From Eledone cirrhosa (Eukaryota): DNA of 64,000 nucleotides. Position 1 is the stretch's first letter, and each line of letters starts with the position of its first letter. Below the pieces are notes generated by a model. It did not search any database. It saw only the letters and a list, made by a program, of their open reading frames with translations, and was not told where the DNA came from. Position numbers and translations under genes: made by a program. Positions 20,746 through 59,815 of the stretch are shown piece after piece. The stretch is taken from positions 116,622,001-116,686,000 of the forward strand of contig OZ024745.1 in NCBI GenBank assembly GCA_964016885.1, read 5' to 3'.

Positions 20746-21837
20746 TCATGTTAAACATTGGGTGTTGAGTTCTAATCTATTATTGATTGGTGGTTGCTTT
20801 TTGTCTATAATTAATGCTTCTTTAATTCTAAGATTGCCGAAGTTTCTTTCCTTAGCTTCTATCCTAACTATTATGTTTTTCTCCAGATGTTTCTTAAATG
20901 AGGAAGCATTAGTGTTGAGGTGTTCTTTTATTTTAACGTGATGTTGTCTGCTGGTTCTACCCATGTAGAAACTGCTACATTTGTCGCACTCTAATCTGTA
21001 GACGACGTATGCCTGGTGGCAGAGGTCTGTGTCGTCGATGGGGTAGTTGGCCAGCGTGCAGCGCCTGTCTTGTCTGGTGGAGTGTCTCTTAGCTATCTGT
21101 CCGCGCAGAGAAGGTCCTGAGTGGGATAGCTGGATATCTAGTCCCTCTCGTCTGATAGCCCAGCGGATGGCTGTTGTAGTTTCGTCACTGAAGCGTGGGA
21201 GCTTCAGGAAGCAGGTGTTAGTGCTTCGGCTGTGGTGTCCTCTGTTGTTTCTGGCACGGTTCGTGGTGGACGTCGGGTATCCGTTCAGTGTAAGTACTCC
21301 CAGGAAGTGTGTGGTGTGTGTGTCTCGGTCTCTTGCATCGGTGCATTTGTTCCGTATACGTGTCAGTTCGTTCCTTATGTATCCGAACTGGGAGGGCTGA
21401 CCTAAAATGGACGAACAGGGCCCTGCTGGCAGCTTCTTTATAGAAGCAGGTGTGGATGTCGCCTTCCTCTGGAAGTCTAATAGGGATAGGGATCCACGGT
21501 CATCGGGGTGTTCCATGCTCAACTTTATATTGGGGTCCATACTGGAGAATGTCATGTATATTTGATTCGGTTCTTCACGAGATGATGTAAGGATGAGTAT
21601 GTCATCTACATATCGAGTGAAGAAGGTATAGGAATGGCAGGTGTTGAGGGCTCGGCATTCCAGCTGGTTCATATAAGTGATGGCCAGCAGGCCCGATAGG
21701 CTGGATCCCATGGGTAATCCTGTTTTCTGTCTGTATGTGTTGTGGTGGAAGGTGAAGTATGTGTTGTCCACCGTAAAGGACAAAAGCTGGTGTATGTCCG
21801 TCGGATGGAGGCCGTAGCTGTGGTCCAGCTCAGTCAA
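20746..21837 (-). pseudogene. Penelope-like element RT plus GIY-YIG endonuclease, 5'-truncated
   Basis: YRQKTGLPMGSSLS, RYVDDIL, LSLLD RT motifs; VVYRLECDKC..FYMGRTSR..KIKEH and EAL.I..KQP.IN endonuclease motifs; thumb region looks deleted or frameshifted. Confidence 0.9.
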
Positions 21838-22036
21838 AATCTTTCCCTGAGTTCAGTCTATTTCGTTGCTATGGCAAGGCGGCTGGACTGCCGGTCGCTA
21901 TATTGGATTTTCAAAGCTGTCTAAAGGTATTGTTATAACTCTGGGGTATTATTCTCCATCGAATGCTAAATCTACATTCCGAATCTGCATTTGTTAGCTT
22001 AGCCGCAGCCTAAAGCTTCATTAATGCTGTACTAAA

Positions 22037-22086: not shown

Positions 22087-23133
22087 ATACTTGGGGAGGG
22101 TCATATTTGTGTAATAATATTGCCAGAATTAATAACAGAACACACTCACTGTTTGGTTGGTTTTCGCTTCTGTGTCTTTTATATCGGTTAATTAAATTTA
22201 TTCGGTCCTCAATGTTGTCATTGACTGGCCAACGGTCAAAAATACAGATACAATATAGACACAAACACATATATATAGTCCATCAGAGTTCTTTCGTTGC
22301 ACATCTACAACCTCGTCAGTGGTGCTATTATGTTTCCTCCCGTTCCGTTCCATTGTATGCTTACGCCATCTTTATTTAGTGTTTATTTATTTATTCATTT
22401 GTTTATTTTTTGTCTTCTCTGCGCATGCGTTTGCGTGTGTGTATAGTGTTTTGTTTGATGTGTGTTCTTGTTTGGGTGACTGTGTATTGGTTAATGTATT
22501 CTATCTTAGTTTACTAGTGTGTATTTATATGTGTTTGTTGTTATTGTGCTTGTGTATGTATTTATTTATTTATTTATTTATTTATTTATACTTCTCTTAG
22601 GTCAGTGTTGTTTGTTTGGGTGTTTTTGTTATTTCATCATTTTTTCTGTTTAGCCTTGGCCTTCTAAGTTTTATTTCGCTGGCCTCTCTGATTTGCCTAT
22701 CTGCTGGGTCATTTCTATGTTTAGATATTATTCTAACTTCTATGTTGTCTATGTTACCGTTGTGTTGTTGTCTGGCATGTTCGTATAGTACTGAACCGTT
22801 TTTTCGTCCTTTTAGTTCCCCCCAGTGTTGGTCTATCCTTTCAACTATGCTACGAGCTGTCTCGCCTATGTATGTTGTTGTCATATTTCTGCAAGTACCC
22901 TTTGTACATCTTATGCTATAGACTACGTTTCTAGTTTTACAGTTTATCCGGGGGTTTACTCTACATATGATACATTTCCTATTAGTACAGTGGGTTTTCT
23001 TAAAAGGGTAGGTTTTGCTGATCAGGGATTTTATGGTGGTTCCTAGCTTTTCTACCACCTTAATCTTTAAGTGGGTCTTTCTCAGGGCCTTTCTACACTG
23101 GTTAGCTAATTTCCCTCCGGAGGTAGCATCCAT
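22085..23133 (-). mobile_element. PLE family E 3' part: GIY-YIG ORF (22597..23133), 3' UTR and terminus at (TA)n
   Basis: CTNRKCIIC linker, NVVYSIRC, YIGETARS..RIDQH, RQIREA..LNRK; UTR shared with 59430-59815. Confidence 0.9.
22281..22324 (-). ncRNA. Minimal type I HHR, family E
   Basis: Minus strand: cacca-CTGACGA-g gttgta gatg tgcaac-GAAA-g aa c-TC-tgatg. Confidence 0.75.
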
Positions 23134-23147
23134 TCACACCAACACAT

Positions 23148-23219
23148 GATGTGTTGGTGTAAATGGTAGCACAGTGGTCCGGATAACCAAAGATGGAGGT
23201 TCGACTCCCATGTACGTCA
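23148..23219 (+). pseudogene. tRNA-like sequence (pseudo-tRNA or SINE head)
   Basis: GATGTGT/GTACGTC acceptor with wobbles, D arm GTGT-AAATGGTA-GCAC, TGGT/ACCA anticodon arm, GGTTCGACTCC; lacks U33 and has an imperfect T stem. Confidence 0.55.
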
Positions 23220-23785: not shown

Positions 23786-25894
23786 TTAGCTATCTGGAGG
23801 TGGAGGGTAGTTAGCTGGAGGTGGAGGGTAGTTAGCTGGAGGTGGAGGGTAGTTAGCTGGAGGTGGAGGGTAGCTTGCTGGAGGTGGAGGGTAGTTAGCT
23901 GGAGGTGGAGGGTAGTTAGCTGGAGGTGGGTGGTAGTTAGCTGGAGGTGGAGGGTAGTTAGCTGGAGGTGGATGGTAGTTAGCTGGAGGTGGAGGGTAGT
24001 TAGCTGGAGGTGGAGGGTAGTTAGCTGGAGGTGGAGGGTAGTTAGCTGGAGGTGGGTGGTAGTTAGCTGGAGGTGGAGGGTAGTTAGCTGGAGGTGGAGG
24101 GTAGTTAGCTGGAGGTGGAGGGTAGTTAGCTAGAGGTGGAGGGTAGTTAGCTGGAGGTGGAGGGTAGTTAGCTGGAGGTGGAGGGTAGTTAGCTGGAGGT
24201 GGAGGGTAGTTAGCTGGAGGTGGAGGGTAGTTAGCTGGAGGTGGAGGGTAGTTAGCTGGAGGTGGAGGGTAGCTTGCTGGAGGTGGAGGGTAGTTAGCTG
24301 GAGGTGGAGGGTAGTTAGGTGGAGGTGGAGGGTAGTTAGCTGGAGGTGGAGGGTAGTTAGCTGGAGGTGGAGGGTAGCTTGCTGGAGGTGGAGGGTAGTT
24401 AGGTGGAGGTGGAGGGTAGTTAGCTGGAGGTGGAGGGTAGTTAGCTGGAGGTGGACGGAGCTTGCTGGAGGTGGAGGGTAGTTAGCTAGAGGTGGAGGGT
24501 AGTTAGCTGGAGGTGGAGGGTAGTTAGCTAGAGGTGGAGGGTAGTTAGCTGGAGGTGGAGGGTAGTTAGCTGGAGGTGGAGGGTAGTTAGCTGGAGGTGG
24601 AGGGTAGTTAGCTAGAGGTGGAGGGTAGTTAGCTGGAGGTGGAGGGTAGTTAGCTGGAGGTGGAGGGTAGTTAGCTGGAGGTGGATGGTAGTTAGCTGGA
24701 GGTGGAGGGTAGTTAGCTGGAGGTGGAGGGTAGTTAGCTGGAGGTGGAGGGTAGTTAGCTGGAGGTGGGTGGTAGTTAGCTGGAGGTGGAGGGTAGTTAG
24801 CTGGAGGTGGAGGGTAGTTAGCTGGAGGTGGAGGGTAGTTAGCTAGAGGTGGAGGGTAGTTAGCTGGAGGTGGAGGGTAGTTAGCTGGAGGTGGAGGGTA
24901 GTTAGCTGGAGGTGGAGGGTAGTTAGCTGGAGGTGGAGGGTAGTTAGCTGGAGGTGGAGGGTAGTTAGCTGGAGGTGGAGGGTAGCTTGCTGGAGGTGGA
25001 GGGTAGTTAGCTGGAGGTGGAGGGTAGTTAGGTGGAGGTGGAGGGTAGTTAGCTGGAGGTGGAGGGTAGTTAGCTGGAGGTGGAGGGTAGCTTGCTGGAG
25101 GTGGAGGGTAGTTAGGTGGAGGTGGAGGGTAGTTAGCTGGAGGTGGAGGGTAGTTAGCTGGAGGTGGACGGAGCTTGCTGGAGGTGGAGGGTAGTTAGCT
25201 AGAGGTGGAGGGTAGTTAGCTGGAGGTGGAGGGTAGTTAGCTGGAGGTGGAGGGTAGTTAGCTGGAGGTGGAGGGTAGCTTGCTGGAGGTGGAGGGTAGT
25301 TAGCTGGAGGTGGAGGGCAGTTAGTTGGAGGTGGGGTAGTTAGGTGGAGGTGGAGGGTAGTTAGCTGGAGGAGGGTGTAGTTAGGTGAAGGTGAAGGGTA
25401 GCTTGCTGGAGGTGTAGGGTAGCTTGCTTGAAGTGGAGGGAAGTTAGCTGGAGGTGGGGTAGTTAGCTGGAGGTGGGGGTAGTTTGCTGGAGGTGAAGGG
25501 TAGCTTGGTGGAGGTGGAGGGTAGTTAGGTTCAGGTGGAGGGTAATTAGCTGGAGGTGGAGGGTAATTAGCTGGAGGTGGGTGTAGTTAGGTGGAGGTGG
25601 ATGGTAGCTTGATGGAGGTGGAGGTGGAGGGTAGTTAGCAGCAGGTGGAGTGAAGTTAGGTGGAGGTGGAGTGTAGCTTGCTGGAGGTGGAGTGTAGTTA
25701 GGTGGAGGTGGAGGGTAGCTTGCTGGAGGTGGAGGTGGAGGGTAGTTAGCAGCAGGTGGAGTGAAGTTAGGTGGAGGTGGAGTGTAGCTTGCTGGAGGTG
25801 GAGTGTAGTTAGGTGGAGGTGGAGGGTAGCTTGCTGGAGGGTAGTTCTTGTGACGTCCTTTCCCCGTGCAACACCACATACGCTCACTCGACAA
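23786..25894 (-). CDS. Possible Pro/Tyr-rich extensin-like repeat exon, frameshifted
   Basis: ORF 25463..25894 reads NYPPASYPPPPPNYTPPPASYT...; array reads (PANYPPP)n and ends PPDS* at 23786; several 1-nt indels break the frame. Confidence 0.3.
23789..25850. repeat. 21-bp minisatellite, roughly 95 units, degenerate at the right end
   Basis: Unit GGAGGTGGAGGGTAGTTAGCT with variants TAGCTTGCT, TAGTTAGGT, CTAGAGG. Confidence 0.97.
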
Positions 25895-33590: not shown

Positions 33591-33741
33591 GGGCGGTGGA
33601 TTGGCAGTATCGGTAGAGGGTCGGAGGCCATGCTTTGACGCATAGAGTTACGTCCCTTGCCATTCTGAGTTCAAATCCCGCCGAGGTTAACTTTACCTTT
33701 CATCCTTACGGGGTCGATAAAATAGAGTACCAGTAATACAC
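33591..33741 (+). mobile_element. S1 SINE truncated by a minisatellite
   Basis: S1 head and core up to GTACCAGTAATACAC. Confidence 0.9.
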
Positions 33742-35200
33742 CAACACCAACACTACTCCCAACACCAACACTACCCCCAACACTAACACTACCCCCAACA
33801 CCAACACTACTCCCAACACCAACACTACTCCCAACACCAACACTACTCCCAACACTAACACTACTCCCAACACCAACACTACTCCCAACACCAACACTAC
33901 CCCCAACACCAACACTACTCCCAACACCAACACTACTCCCAACACCAACACTACCCCCAACACCAACACTACTCCCAACACCAACACTACCCCCAACACC
34001 AACACTACTCCCAACACCAACACTACTCCCAACACCAACACTACCCCCAACACCAACACTACTCCCAACACCAACACTACTCCCAACACCAACACTACCC
34101 CCAACACCAACACTACTCCCAACACCAACACTACCCCCAACACCAACACTACTCCCAACACCAACACTACTCCCAACACCAACACTACTCCCAACACTAA
34201 CACTACTCCCAACACCAACACTACTCCCAACACCAACACTACCCCCAACACCAACACTACTCCCAACACCAACACTACTCCCAACACCAACACTACTCCC
34301 AACACTAACACTACTCCCAACACCAACACTACCCCCAACACCAACACTACCCCCAACACCAACACTACTCCCAACACCAACACTACCCCCAACACCAACA
34401 CTACTCCCAACACCAACACTACCCCCAACACCAACACTACTCCCAACACCAACACTACCCCCAACACCAACACTACTCCCAACACCAACACTACCCCCAA
34501 CACCAACACTACTCCCAACACCAACACTACTCCCAACACCAACACTACCCCCAACACCAACACTACCCCCAACACCAACACTACCCCCAACACCAACACT
34601 ACCCCCAACACCAACACTACCCCCAACACCAACACTACCCCCAACACCAACACTACTCCCAACACCAACACTACTCCCAACACCAACACTACTCCCAACA
34701 CTAACACTACCCCCAACAACAATACTACCCCCAACACCAACACTACCCCCAACACCAACACTACCCCCAACAACAATACTACCCCCAACACCAACACTAC
34801 CCCCAACACCAACACTACCCCAACACTAACACTACTCCCAACACCAACACTACCCCCAACACCAACACTACCCCAACACTAACACTACTCCCAACACCAA
34901 CACTACCCCAACACTAACACTACCCCAACAACAACACTACCCCCAACACCAACACTACCCCCAACACCAACACTACCCCCAACACCAACACTACCCCCAA
35001 CACCAACACTACCCCAACACTAACACTACTCCCAACACCAACACTACCCCAACACTAACACTACCCCAACAACAACACTACCCCCAACACTAACACTACT
35101 CCCAACACCAACACTACCCCAACACTAACACTACCCCAACACCAACACTACCCCCAACACCAACACTACCCCCAACACCAACACTACCCCCAACAACAAC
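33739..35200. repeat. 18-bp minisatellite, about 80 units; 17-bp units appear after 34810
   Basis: Unit CCAACACCAACACTAC(T/C)C. Confidence 0.97.
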
Positions 35201-35380
35201 ATTAACGTTATGGTTTTGTTTCACCCAACACCAGCTCCGACATCGACTTCAGTGAGGACAAAACTATGATTGTGATGCAATATAACTTTCAATGTTTTAA
35301 CAGATGGAGGGTAAAAGGAAATATATCAATATATCGATATTGATATCTTCGTTCTGTATATCATTATCATTATTATCATC

Positions 35381-38842: not shown

Positions 38843-39328
38843 ATATTACACAAATGTTTTCGATAACTCACAGTCCTGCAACAGTCCTCTTAAATTCCAC
38901 ATATCTTACCATACAAGTATTTACAGTGGAGGGTAAGGAGCGGTGTTAGGGTAAAATCATTATTTACGAACGTGATATGGTTAAACTGTTGATATTAGTA
39001 TCACCTCTAATATTACACAAATGTTTTCGATAACTCACAGTCCTGCAACAGTCCTCTTAAATTCCACATATCTTACCATACAGTGGAGGGTAAGGAGCGG
39101 TGTTAGGGTAAAATCATTATTTACGAACGTGATATGGTTAAACTGTTGATATTAGTATCACCTCTAATATTACACAAATGTTTTCGATAACTCACAGTCC
39201 TGCAACAGTCCTCTTAAATTCCACATATCTTACCATACAGTGGAGGGTAAGGAGCGGTGTTAGGGTAAAATCATTATTTACGAACGTGATATGGTTAAAC
39301 TGTTGATATTAGTATCACCTCTAATATT
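38843..39328. repeat. 157-bp tandem repeat, three copies
   Basis: Units start at 38843 (167 bp, 10-bp insertion), 39010 and 39167; otherwise identical by eye. Confidence 0.95.
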
Positions 39329-45377: not shown

Positions 45378-46545
45378 GCCCGCCTGAGACACTGCATAGC
45401 AATGTGGCCCGCCTGTGAGACACTACATAGCAATGTGGCCCGCCTGTGAGACACTACATAGCAATGTGGCCCGCCTGTGAGACACTGCATAGCTATATGG
45501 CCCGCCTGTGAGACACTGCATAGCTATGTGGGCCGCCGACAAGACACTGCATAGCTATGTGGCCGCCTGTGAGACACTACATAGCAATGTGGCCCGCCTG
45601 TGAGACACTGCATAGCAATGTGGCCCGCCTGTGAGACACTGCATAGCTATATGGCCCGCCTGTGAGACACTGCATAGCTATATGGCCCGCCTGTGAGACA
45701 CTGCATAGCTATATGGCCCGCCTGTGAGACACTGCATAGCTATATGGCCCGTCTGTGAGACACTGCATAGCAATGTGGCCCGTCTGTGAGACACTGCATA
45801 GCTATATGGCCCGCCTGTGAGACACTGCATAGCTATATGGCCCGTCTGTGAGACACTGCATAGCTATATGGCCCGCCTGTGAGACACTGCATAGCTATAT
45901 GGCCCGCCTGTGAGACACTGCATAGCTATATGGCCCGTCTGTGAGACACTACATAGCAATGTGGATCGCCTGTGAGACACTGCATAGCTATATGGCCCGC
46001 CTGTGAGACACTGCATAGCTATATGGCCCGTCTATGAGACACTGCATAGCTATATGGCCCGCCTGTGAGACACTGCATAGCTATATGGCCCGCCTGTGAG
46101 ACACTGCATAGCTATATGGCCCGCCTGTGAGACACTGCATAGCTATATGGCCTGTCTGTGAGACACTACATAGCAATGTGGATCGCCTGTGAGACACTGC
46201 ATAGCTATATGGCCCGTCTGTGAGACACTACATAGCAATGTGGCTCGCCTATGAGACACTGCATAGCTATATGGCCCGCCGACAAGACACTGCATATGTA
46301 GGTGGCCCGCCTATGAGACACTGCATAGCAATGTGGCCCGCCTATGAGACACTGCACAGCTATATGGCCGCACATGAGACACTACATAGCTATATGACCG
46401 CCTATGAGACACTGCACAGCTATATGGCCGCACATGAGACACTACATAGCTATATGGCCGCCTATGAGACACTACATAGCTATATGACCGCCTATGAGAC
46501 GCTGTATAGCTATATGGCCGCCTGTGAGACGCTGTATAGCTACGT
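45378..46545. repeat. 31/30-bp minisatellite, about 38 units
   Basis: Unit GCCTGTGAGACACTGCATAGCTATATGGCCC; 30-bp units after about 46340. Confidence 0.97.
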
Positions 46546-47108
46546 GACCCACACATCCCACGACCCCTGTTCTATCAGATGAAACAGTCTTCAACATACT
46601 TTTTCTCATTTTCTTTTTTGTATGAACACAAATTGGCTCCGAATTTTTACTGACACTTCATAATTTGTTCGTGGTTCCCCATAACTAGATGGCCGTATGT
46701 TTGTGCTAATTTCGTACTCAAGGCTTTCCCCGATATTTCATAGTATGTAAGTTCATCGAACATAAAATTCGATAAAGTAGTTCCTTTCTATACGCCCCGA
46801 TAATTTGATCGCTACCCGTTAGTATTGAGTAACCTCCATAATTGTGTGGAATAATAGTGTATAAACAAAATACATCAAACAAAACAATAATTATGTTTTG
46901 ATTATACTTTCAGGTAAGTGGTTGAGTATATCTAGGTCGTCACAAATAAAGCTTGGTATATATTGTATGAAATCTGTGTATTTTCTTTTTTTTTCTCATA
47001 CGCGTTTGTTTTTATTGTATGTACCTAAATCTGTTCTAAGCGAGCTGACCATAATCCACGTACATTTTACTATTATTTCAGACATACAGTCATGTATATA
47101 TCGCTATT

Positions 47109-47286
47109 TCAGAGCACCAATTCTAATTTTCAATTTTTGCTGGACCGGCAATCGCTCCCTATAATCAATTTCTGATAATTACTGGAATTCTATAAGAATC
47201 CAACATCTATAATTTTCAACAGGCATCAGCGAGTGCTAAGCTCTGATGATTACCCACAGTATGAAACAGATCTGTCAGAGCACCAA

Positions 47287-47293
<7 letters not shown>
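47109..47293 (+). mobile_element. 166-nt retrozyme-like unit with terminal redundancy
   Basis: TCAGAGCACCAATTCTAAT at 47109 and 47275 (166 nt apart); second copy spans the HHR cleavage site and runs into (TA)n. Confidence 0.75.
47234..47282 (+). ncRNA. Intact type I HHR
   Basis: tgct aag ct-CTGATGA-t tac ccaca gta t-GAAA-cag at ctg-TC-ag agca; GUC site after 47276; bulged stem I. Confidence 0.85.
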
Positions 47294-47384
<91 letters not shown>

Positions 47385-47480
47385 AGAGATGCCAACATGA
47401 ATAGACCTGTAATTTTTATCTAAAGACATTTTTTCCAATTCCACCCCGCCTGTCCCTTCAATTTATCTTATTTCTCATTC

Positions 47481-47520
47481 TTTCTTCTGATGAAGGACTA
47501 GCGTCCGAAACGTTAAAACC
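47481..47520 (+). ncRNA. Minimal HHR core
   Basis: CTGATGA-a ggac tagc gtcc-GAAA-cgt-TA; weak stem I. Confidence 0.6.
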
Positions 47521-47754
47521 CTCTTCCGCCTATTTCAAACTAATATATTCCTTCCATATACTGTACCGAATGTCTTGTTATTTCTGTTTACCTTTTACAT
47601 ACATATATAACAGAGTGTTGTAGTTTGCTTGAAGCATTGTTGAATAGGAAATATAAATTTAAATAATTTTAAATTACATACAATTTCCGACCGGACCTTC
47701 ACAGGGATACTCCCTTGATAATGGGTTTTTAAGATATTATAGATATCTAGTATA

Positions 47755-57615: not shown

Positions 57616-59815
57616 CCCCTTAGAGAAACTATTCTTCAATCCAGCTGACAAAACATATCAGATGGGTAATATTTATCCTACGAGGTTACCCTTTAATAAA
57701 AGGGTTTGTATATCACAACAAGTAGATGACGAGACAGAGGCACAGTTCACCATAGCTAGAAATAAGATTAGACAAATAGTAGACCGATATACTAAGAGAC
57801 AGAGCAGACCAGAGGTCCAACAACTTGGGGGGAAACCTGTAGAAGGCTTGGTTAGCATCAAGCAGTGCACAAGGGATGGTGAGGTAGTGTGTCTACCCAC
57901 GGATAAGTCTGGTAGGATGTCAATAGACAGCATGCCGAACTACATCAAGGCTATGCAACCCCACATTACCAACACGAGCGAAATTACACAGCAAATAAAT
58001 GAGGGGAGAGAGAAGATGCTCAACGCTCACATGATGATGTGAACCCACATCCTAAAGCCAAGCAGACGTACTGCCAACAACTTCCAGGCGTCTAACAATG
58101 ACATACCACACTTGTATGGGCTCCGCAAAGACCATAAGACAGTCGACGACCCGACAACAGGACCACCGACAAGACCTGTATGCGGAGCCAATATCGCTAG
58201 CAACTACAGGATCTCCTACTTCCTCCCAATGGTTATATGCCCCATAATCAAGATGTCCCCGTAATCAAGATGACAGTACAGAGGACCTCCTCAGCAGAAT
58301 CAGTGAGTGCAACAAAAACAAAAACCTATCCAACTGCATAATTGGCAGTGTGGACGTGGTATCACTATATCCATCCATTAACATTTATTTTGCTGTGGGA
58401 AAATGTGTGGAGATGATCAGTGAAAGTGAGGTGGAGTTCTCCGACTTCGACACAGACGAAATGGGCCTCCTACTTAGACTTAACCTATGACACCGAGTAC
58501 CTAGACAGCCATGACCTTAGCCGTTTCTGCCCCAGTAGACCCATAAGAAGTAGATCCCCTTCACCATAACCTTAATGGCAAAAAAGACTCCCATGAGAAG
58601 GTGAATTGGGTGGACCAAAGCCATACGGACCCCCAAAACAATGATCAGGTAAGAAAAATGATCGCACACATGCAATAGGGGCTAGTATTAAAACTACCCT
58701 AAAGAGCCACATATTCAAATTCAACGAGAAGAGGTACACCCAAAATGAGGGAGCAGCCATTGGCGTCAGCATAGCTGGTGACGTTGCCAACCTTTTTATG
58801 GTATGTTGGGAAAAGTGACTCAAAGATCTACTTGATGAGAGTGAGAGCTCCATAGACCTCGTCATGTACTCTCGTTACGTAGACGACATTAATATAGTAG
58901 TAAGGACACCCCCACAAGAGAGTACTAACAAGTATGATTTAGAATGTAGCACAATGAAAAGCATCCAGCAGATAGCTAATTCCATACACCAGAGTATAAC
59001 TGTAACTATCGACTACCTTTCCAAACAAACTAACAATAGACTACCTGTATTAGACACGGAACTCTGGATTAACACTATAGACGAGAGAGCCCAAATTCTC
59101 CACTCACACTACGCTAAATCCATGGCCTCCAAATACCTGATACTCAAAAACTCAGCAATGTCCAGTAGTGCTAAGTTTAATATTCTGATCGCAGACTTGG
59201 TACGAGTGATGAAGAATGTGTCCCGCATGTGCAACCCAACAGAAATGGAAAGACACATCCAACACTTCATCAACCGCATGCAGTTCTCTGGCTACAACAA
59301 AAGAGACAGAATCAGAGTATACGAAGGAGCCACGGAGGAGTATAAGACCCTCATAGAACTGGACATGAAAGGAATTTGCCAATTATACAGGAGCAAATCA
59401 TGGAATATAGCTTAGATAGGACTAAACATAAGATAGGGAAATATAAATAAATAAATAAATATATACAGAAGCACAATAACAACAAACACATATAAACACA
59501 CACTAGTAAACTAAGATAGAATACAATAACCAAAACACAGTCACCCAAACGCGAACACACATCAAACAATATACAGACACGCAAACGCATGCGCAGAGAA
59601 GAAGACAAAAATAAATAAATAAACAGATTGAATAAAATGGCGTAGACATACAATACAACAGGAGTAAACATAATAGTACCACTGACGATGTTGCAGATGT
59701 GCAACGAAAGAACTTTGTTAGACTATATATATGTGTTTGTGTCTATATTATATCTGTATTTTTGACCGTTGGTCAGTCAATGGTAAACACGGAGGACCGA
59801 ATAAATTAACTGATA
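57616..59815 (+). mobile_element. PLE family E: degenerate RT, endonuclease deleted, 3' UTR with HHR
   Basis: PTDKSG, LYGLRKDHK, TRPVCGA, GSVDVVSLYPSI, YTQNEGAAIG..AGDVANLFM, RYVDDIN, RLPVLD; jumps from the thumb region to the UTR shared with 22200-22596. Confidence 0.9.
59677..59720 (+). ncRNA. Minimal type I HHR, family E
   Basis: tacca-CTGACGA-t gttgca gatg tgcaac-GAAA-g aa c-TT-tgtta; homologue of 22281-22324. Confidence 0.7.

Follow-up and report, generated by a model that had tools for sequence, protein, structure and literature searches.

A 166-nt hammerhead unit in Eledone cirrhosa is probably an inactive, internally deleted copy of a ~316-nt family, a likely non-LTR retrozyme that Penelope-like enzymes would mobilise in trans

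Non-LTR retrozymes of animals are described as low-GC tandem elements with units of ~300 bp, each carrying a type I hammerhead ribozyme, and their RNAs measure ~170-400 nt (PMC7229834, Cervera and de la Pena 2020). They have been proposed to be non-autonomous derivatives of Penelope-like elements (PLEs), and in vitro, eight out of nine dimers of Xenopus retrozymes failed to cleave (bioRxiv 10.64898/2026.07.22.740005, Li, Clavereau and Pollet 2026). The family described here, with a unit of ~316 nt, shares with these elements a hammerhead in each non-coding monomer of ~300 nt, a GC content below 45%, thousands of copies, an occurrence as monomers, dimers and short multimers, and the company of autonomous PLEs. 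RNAs have been reported for the described retrozymes. The failure of the Xenopus dimers to cleave would, by analogy, count against assuming activity in the 316-nt family. The retrozyme papers argue for mobilisation by PLEs from co-occurrence and pLTR homology, whereas the 316-nt family shows the insertion marks themselves.

PLE insertions are marked by partial tandems, an inverted 5'-truncated partner, a tail of 30-40 bp that is often one-ended and a bias toward (TA)n (PMC8557442, Craig et al. 2021), and the tail has been found in vitro to sit between two internal start sites of the reverse transcriptase (RT) (PMC11167929, Frangieh et al. 2024). EN+ PLEs have in common with the 316-nt family the truncation, partial tandems, inverted arm, one-ended tail, (TA)n and two start sites; unlike it, they carry an RT-GIY-YIG ORF. 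Start sites were alike on both strands in vitro (PMC11167929), whereas the two arms of the 316-nt insertions usually differ. The MRC1-type non-autonomous PLE derivatives of Chlamydomonas are likewise non-coding, pLTR-forming and multicopy in head-to-tail order, but they have 3' sequence in common with an autonomous family that is known, and they belong to a clade without canonical hammerheads (PMC8557442); for the 316-nt family no such partner was seen among 50 GIY-YIG loci. The text of bioRxiv 10.64898/2026.07.22.740005 makes no mention of a tail, and among the matches listed in our literature search no paper was centred on PLE insertion marks in a retrozyme, with the proviso that supplements may list similar structures.

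The locus examined here lies in a 64-kb stretch of the Eledone cirrhosa genome, the whole of which we call the window (Table 1). An earlier note had read it as a candidate minimal circular retrozyme, a 166-nt unit running from one cleavage site to the next. Several of the observations behind that reading are borne out: a hammerhead core with a predicted cut after C47276 is present in the sequence letters, with a 3-bp stem II that has T.T at 10.1-11.1 and a palindromic stem III at 47266-47275, and an exact 19-nt repeat (47109-47127 and 47275-47293) has the 166-nt spacing, its second copy entering (AT)45.5. The start of the element does not lie at 47111, as had been proposed. Positions 47084-47108 match family positions 292-316, which moves the start ~27 nt further upstream, and the loose ends of related contigs at 47082/47084 put the true 5' end of the insertion at ~47082-47084. 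A core-motif scan found no hammerhead core in front of 47111, so this position is not a cleavage site and the unit does not extend between two of them. The copy instead opens with family positions ~292-316 and goes on with 1-170; ~150 nt are then skipped at a TCAG word, after which the remainder of the 19-nt motif follows. Because it ends at one of the two 3' end sites of the family (site B, below), the 19-nt "terminal redundancy" is, by comparison with other copies, the end of the family's 34-nt tail. On the same comparison the first copy at 47109-47127 is family sequence, neither a cleavage product nor a target-site duplication; the latter source of the repeat, which the earlier note had also considered, is thereby ruled out. 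The (AT)45.5 tract was likely the insertion target. An Rfam search of the window at the gathering threshold returned no hammerhead family and a single tRNA match.

Table 1. Coordinates of the deleted copy and of other features of the window.
Feature	Position	Strand	Basis or remark
5'-truncated piece of preceding monomer (family ~292-316)	47084-47108	+	BLAST to natural monomer
Family positions 1-170 of ~316-nt monomer	47109-47278	+	7 differences from commonest column letters, 42 aligned copies
Tail-end motif, internal copy (19-nt repeat, copy 1)	47109-47127	+	overlapping 17-mer, 6,500 exact matches
Long hammerhead stem I, 5' arm; partner arm deleted in window copy	47213-47242	+	alignment, pair counts
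Type I hammerhead core	47243-47276	+	CTGATGA 47243-47249, stem II 47250-47262, GAAA 47263-47266
Deletion junction, 4-nt TCAG microhomology, cleavage site joined to next monomer's start	47275-47278	+	~150 nt lost
End of 34-nt Penelope-type tail, family 3' end site B	47279-47293	+	3'-end comparison of family arms
(AT)45.5 microsatellite, family's usual 3' neighbour	47292-47382	.	repeat scan
Second, unrelated hammerhead-bearing repeat, directly after (AT)n	47383-47609	+	core at 47487
Further hammerhead-core motifs (five of eight)	3783, 5488, 22319, 32488, 41839	-	core-motif scan
Further hammerhead-core motifs (three of eight)	41462, 42735, 59682	+	core-motif scan
Broken PLE reverse transcriptase remnant	46578-46971	-	43-59% identity to this genome's PLE ORFs
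PLE-type RT remnant ORF	20746-21852	-	Pfam RVT_1, E 2.9e-10
GIY-YIG-like frame	22597-23133	-	judged by eye
RT-like frame	58819-59415	+	judged by eye
tRNA-like match beside GIY-YIG-like remnant	23148-23219	+	Rfam, 29.7 bits, just above cut-off
Tandem repeat	38922-39328		period 157 nt (2.6 exact copies)
Tandem repeat	45378-46542		period 31 nt
Tandem repeat	33741-35201		period 18 nt
Tandem repeat	23787-25840		period 21 nt

The junction that creates the 166-nt spacing is peculiar to this locus. We searched the genome from which the window comes (3.0 Gb, 1,796 contigs) and found by exact matching one occurrence of the junction and 314 copies of the normal 22-mer; with a pattern admitting all subfamilies that share the stem III frame, the junction again occurred once, against 4,179 normal continuations and 12 matches of a control. 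A subfamily of 166 nt is ruled out by this single match with each of the two patterns. A search with 47109-47293 gave 1,669 candidates, and among the 40 scored every match other than the window copy ended by query position 171. The sequence following the cut had been taken for the released product. All 29 close relatives continue differently there, with the true stem I arm (CTTATC..., ATTATC in one), and in most of the 29 the family sequence also goes on at the upstream side.

Natural tandem copies of the parent family have a period of 313-319 nt, and the 46 monomers that reach the unit end measure 295-334 nt, with modes at 313-319. The unit is therefore ~316 nt long, and the supposed 166-nt unit, or minimal circle, is a single-copy deletion of it. 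GC content is 29-40% and pairwise identity 68-98% over 109 copies, and a 17-mer taken from the tail is matched exactly 6,500 times in the genome (control, 0). Each monomer bears a type I hammerhead, and the units are short and stand head to tail, from monomers to arrays of up to ~7 units (L193). The arrays sought on the earlier note's suggestion thus exist at 316 nt; no 166-nt tandem was found. The family is non-coding, with GC under 45-50% and no framing of LTR type, as judged by its (TA)n arm ends. That no credible ORF is present also held up, since a natural family dimer contains no stop-to-stop frame longer than 41 codons. A frame of 30-40 codons starts at an ATG within the hammerhead core. 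The broader classification first given to the locus, a non-coding tandem hammerhead retroelement of the non-LTR retrozyme kind, thus fits the family, which by its sequence is likely a previously undescribed member of the known animal non-LTR retrozymes. Several loci (L166, L168/L172, L185, L186/L193) hold complex arrays of the family, 1.9-3.5 kb long, in which partial units recur and inversions occur, and these are possible source loci of multimeric transcripts.

The ribozyme of the family was compared in an alignment of 55 copies, 54 of them distinct, made up of 54 of the 69 motifs found and one diverged copy. It is a type I hammerhead whose stem I is long and interrupted, and 93.9% of its cells are paired in the 54 distinct copies (43-51% in slid controls). 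Both sides have changed in 10 of the 32 pairs. Values as high as these two are reached in 0-1 of 500 shuffles, although these shuffles ignore relatedness and the double changes track a few subfamilies. This is good evidence, not independent for each copy, that pairing has been kept by compensatory changes. A palindromic stem III and a U3-A8 core are both known from dimer-cleaving hammerheads of metazoans (PMC4209133, Cervera and de la Pena 2014); among 137 parsed motifs we found a fully palindromic stem III in 81 and the U3-A8 variant in 10. The metazoan type I and PLE minimal hammerheads further share with the family a proximal helix I of 6 bp and a helix II of 3-4 bp. Unlike the canonical forms, the 316-nt family has a helix I of ~24 pairs with compensatory changes, and T.T or A-T at position 10.1-11.1, which is usually G-C. 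That position is unpaired in 38 of the 54 rows, which speaks against activity, and the commonest stem II of the window's subfamily has T.T there.

In the window copy the hammerhead is predicted to misfold because the deletion removed the 3' arm of stem I. Its hammerhead fold has a predicted energy of -1.2 kcal/mol against -17.5 for the minimum free energy (MFE) structure, where the strand of the catalytic core is taken up by the new 3' sequence (pairing probability 0.87-1.0 when folded as a circle). The core of the hammerhead proposed at 47234-47282 therefore stands, and the stem I drawn for it does not: it is a weak substitute pairing of 2+5 bp, and by computed energies the ribozyme does not fold with a stem I of its own. 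In an intact copy the corresponding values are -23.5 and -27.8 kcal/mol, the lower by 4.3 belonging to a shifted, non-catalytic register, again a point against activity. A role of the tail motif as an anti-ribozyme in the intact circle found no support: when six natural monomers were folded as circles, their core regions stayed unpaired with the tail motif; the two pair in the deleted form only.

The insertion structure of the family was studied in 229 unique arms of at least 45 nt from 151 loci, which were picked through similarity searches and first matches on one contig and are not a random sample. The 3' ends of 107 arms fall near position 301 (site A) and those of 90 near 316+19 (site B, ~335), with 32 elsewhere. 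Sites A and B lie 34 nt apart, and the sequence between them forms a tail within the 30-40 bp seen in PLEs. Seventy-three head-to-head pairs of 5'-truncated arms occur among the 229, and (TA)n or a related microsatellite adjoins the 3' end in 106 of 142 arms by a loose test that misses several tail ends; 5' truncation with an inverted partner arm and a (TA)n bias are thus found together, as in a PLE-mobilised element. The two arms of a pair tend to end differently. In 50 pairs each end could be assigned to A or B; the combination A+B was seen in 43 of them, and a hand check, which set five of the 50 aside and moved one, left 40 of 45 clear pairs as A+B. When ends were split separately into tail and no tail, exactly one arm carried the tail in 53 of 72 head-to-head pairs (34.4 expected, p 8e-6) and both arms in 2 of 72 (11.3 expected, p 5e-4).

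Arms with a forward skip of at least 30 nt number 10 of 229 by hand count (~4%). Eleven of 144 arms span two cleavage sites. Their template would have to be a circle or an uncut multimer, unless the enzyme jumped between templates, and the data do not separate the three. No pile-up of 5' ends was seen at the cleavage site (positions 166-172), where 8 of 229 fall and ~5 are expected, a point against the retrozyme reading given below. A mild cluster of 25 of the 229 5' ends lies at 180-199, the foot of stem I (~14 expected, confounded by ascertainment), and a second at ~18-27, about one turn from site B, with ascertainment uncontrolled; both could be marks of RT stalling.

Taken as a whole, we consider it probable that the window locus is an internally deleted, single and predicted inactive copy of the 316-nt family, and that this family is a likely non-LTR retrozyme mobilised in trans by PLE enzymes. 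Read-through transcripts of tandem copies would cleave themselves into monomers, possibly circles; dimers are probably the cleaving form, given the short and in many copies palindromic stem III. A PLE RT/GIY-YIG protein would then nick (TA)n DNA and begin the cDNA inside the RNA, at site A (~301) or at site B (~335), as a rule with one start site per target strand and the two strands differing. The window copy would have been primed at site B and run for ~1.15 turns, which agrees with the earlier view that reverse transcription had gone slightly beyond one turn (~27+316+19 nt before the deletion). The ~150 nt between two TCAG words may have been lost during reverse transcription or later through microhomology repair.

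The same junction could instead be a fossil of self-cleavage in vivo, in which an RT primed at site B copied 17-19 nt and then jumped to the ...GUC 3' end of a cut RNA with the help of 2-4 nt of pairing. We regard this as an unlikely origin. The 4-nt microhomology does straddle the predicted cut exactly and template skips are common in the family, but this is one case among 4,180, and the copy was chosen for the coincidence; with thousands of copies, ~4% of them with skips, such a find comes near to chance. The 5' product of hammerhead cleavage ends in a 2',3'-cyclic phosphate, and the cut RNA would have offered the enzyme such an end. It is uncut RNA that a PLE RT has been shown to use in vitro (PMC11167929).

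A further question is whether the unit belongs to an autonomous element. We sought PLE enzymes with a GIY-YIG domain profile, which gave 10,597 candidates in the genome, 150 of them scored. Two long open frames, one of 938 codons with RT and GIY-YIG matches (L115:3306-6122, minus strand) and one of 1,096 codons with an RT and a C-terminal nuclease region (L117:1275-4565, plus strand), both have a CxxxxCxxC motif before the nuclease region and are candidate recent PLEs, Neptune-like by the motif given in PMC8557442. The 316-nt unit might be the pseudo-LTR of such an autonomous PLE, with the copies as its 5'-truncated insertions and partial tandems. Every insertion mark of the family is indeed a PLE mark (PMC8557442), the genome is rich in PLE remnants, and our comparison covered 50 GIY-YIG loci, a small part of the 10,597 candidates. 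Against this, a profile of 109 family monomers found in those 50 loci one independent insertion and one weak stretch only, and long arms enter the previous monomer, up to ~7 units, and never a shared non-unit sequence. The 46 ORFs taken from the 50 loci gave a hit within ~1.5 kb at 31 of the 151 family loci; in two of these 31 (two of all 151) the hit lay upstream in the same orientation at no more than 400 nt, and the proteins matched were different. The sole family copy near a GIY-YIG gene begins as an inverted arm set in a (TA)n tract of its own. We therefore judge the pseudo-LTR reading improbable. No RT/GIY-YIG ORF is joined to the repeat in the 151 family loci or the 50 GIY-YIG loci, so the unit is not always the tail of a coding PLE, the possibility that the earlier note had kept in view. 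Since no ORF is linked in the loci compared, the arms run into monomers and the profile detected no shared PLE end in the 50 GIY-YIG loci, the 316-nt unit is most likely non-autonomous.

A genuine 166-nt circular retrozyme, copied slightly beyond one turn, would sit at the known lower edge of such elements, given the reported RNAs of ~170-400 nt. The repeat and its spacing are real, the substitute stem I can be drawn, and the junction is present in sequencing contigs: in two of three public runs, 82-nt contigs match 47221-47293 without difference, private variants included. All three runs come as contigs from a single sample, its kind unrecorded and perhaps the assembled one itself, and have no bearing on expression. 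The junction, however, is a single copy without a flanking ribozyme pair or tandem form, its contig depth (7.3-8.4) is like that of the unique flank (6.5-6.6), i.e. approximately single-copy, and the new 3' sequence would occupy the core strand. One turn of a 166-nt circle would moreover place stem III before the first repeat, where family positions 292-316 stand instead. With one ribozyme and no stem I partner, the locus, as judged from its letters, cannot free a 166-nt monomer or circle through double cleavage, and we hold the 166-nt circle to be highly implausible. An assembly error, conceivable in a high-copy repeat adjoining a long (AT)n, and with contigs that may stem from the assembled sample and reach 15 letters past the junction, below a 31-letter bridging rule, is hardly credible given the match of those contigs to the private variants.

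The deleted copy lies among other traces of ribozymes and PLEs. The core-motif scan of the window gave 24 overlapping matches at 10 sites (6.7 expected), so hammerhead motifs are common in it; several of the eight further motifs recur in GIY-YIG loci elsewhere in the genome. The unrelated repeat beyond the (AT)n has 4,486 candidates in the genome; its copies are ~90% alike and finish with ...TTTTACATAC followed by (AT)n. It is probably the 3' end of a PLE, since in L126 a GIY-YIG ORF has a diverged relative downstream. The broken RT remnant ~110 nt upstream of the element is in the opposite orientation and is unlinked to it, and the tRNA-like match is possibly the head of a SINE.

As the proposed minimal circle fails, the window locus itself is a case of ordinary decay, and the value of the parent family is modest, the one-ended tail having already been described for PLEs. 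A non-coding unit with a ribozyme that shows the tail, the two start sites and the inverted arms of PLEs nevertheless bears on the mobilisation of retrozymes by these elements, and the rule of one tail per insertion (53 of 72 pairs against 34 expected) bears on how PLEs form tandem and inverted insertions. A bolder reading, which we put forward as speculative and rather doubtful, takes the family for a circular-RNA parasite of a PLE. The dimeric enzyme of that PLE would prime the two target strands at different sites of the RNA, with and without the 34-nt tail, and the junction would record a jump onto a ribozyme-cut end. If true, this would offer direct genomic evidence both for the cutting of retrozyme RNAs in vivo and for their copying by PLE enzymes, as well as a protein-free substrate of 316 nt for studying how PLEs build inverted, one-tailed insertions.
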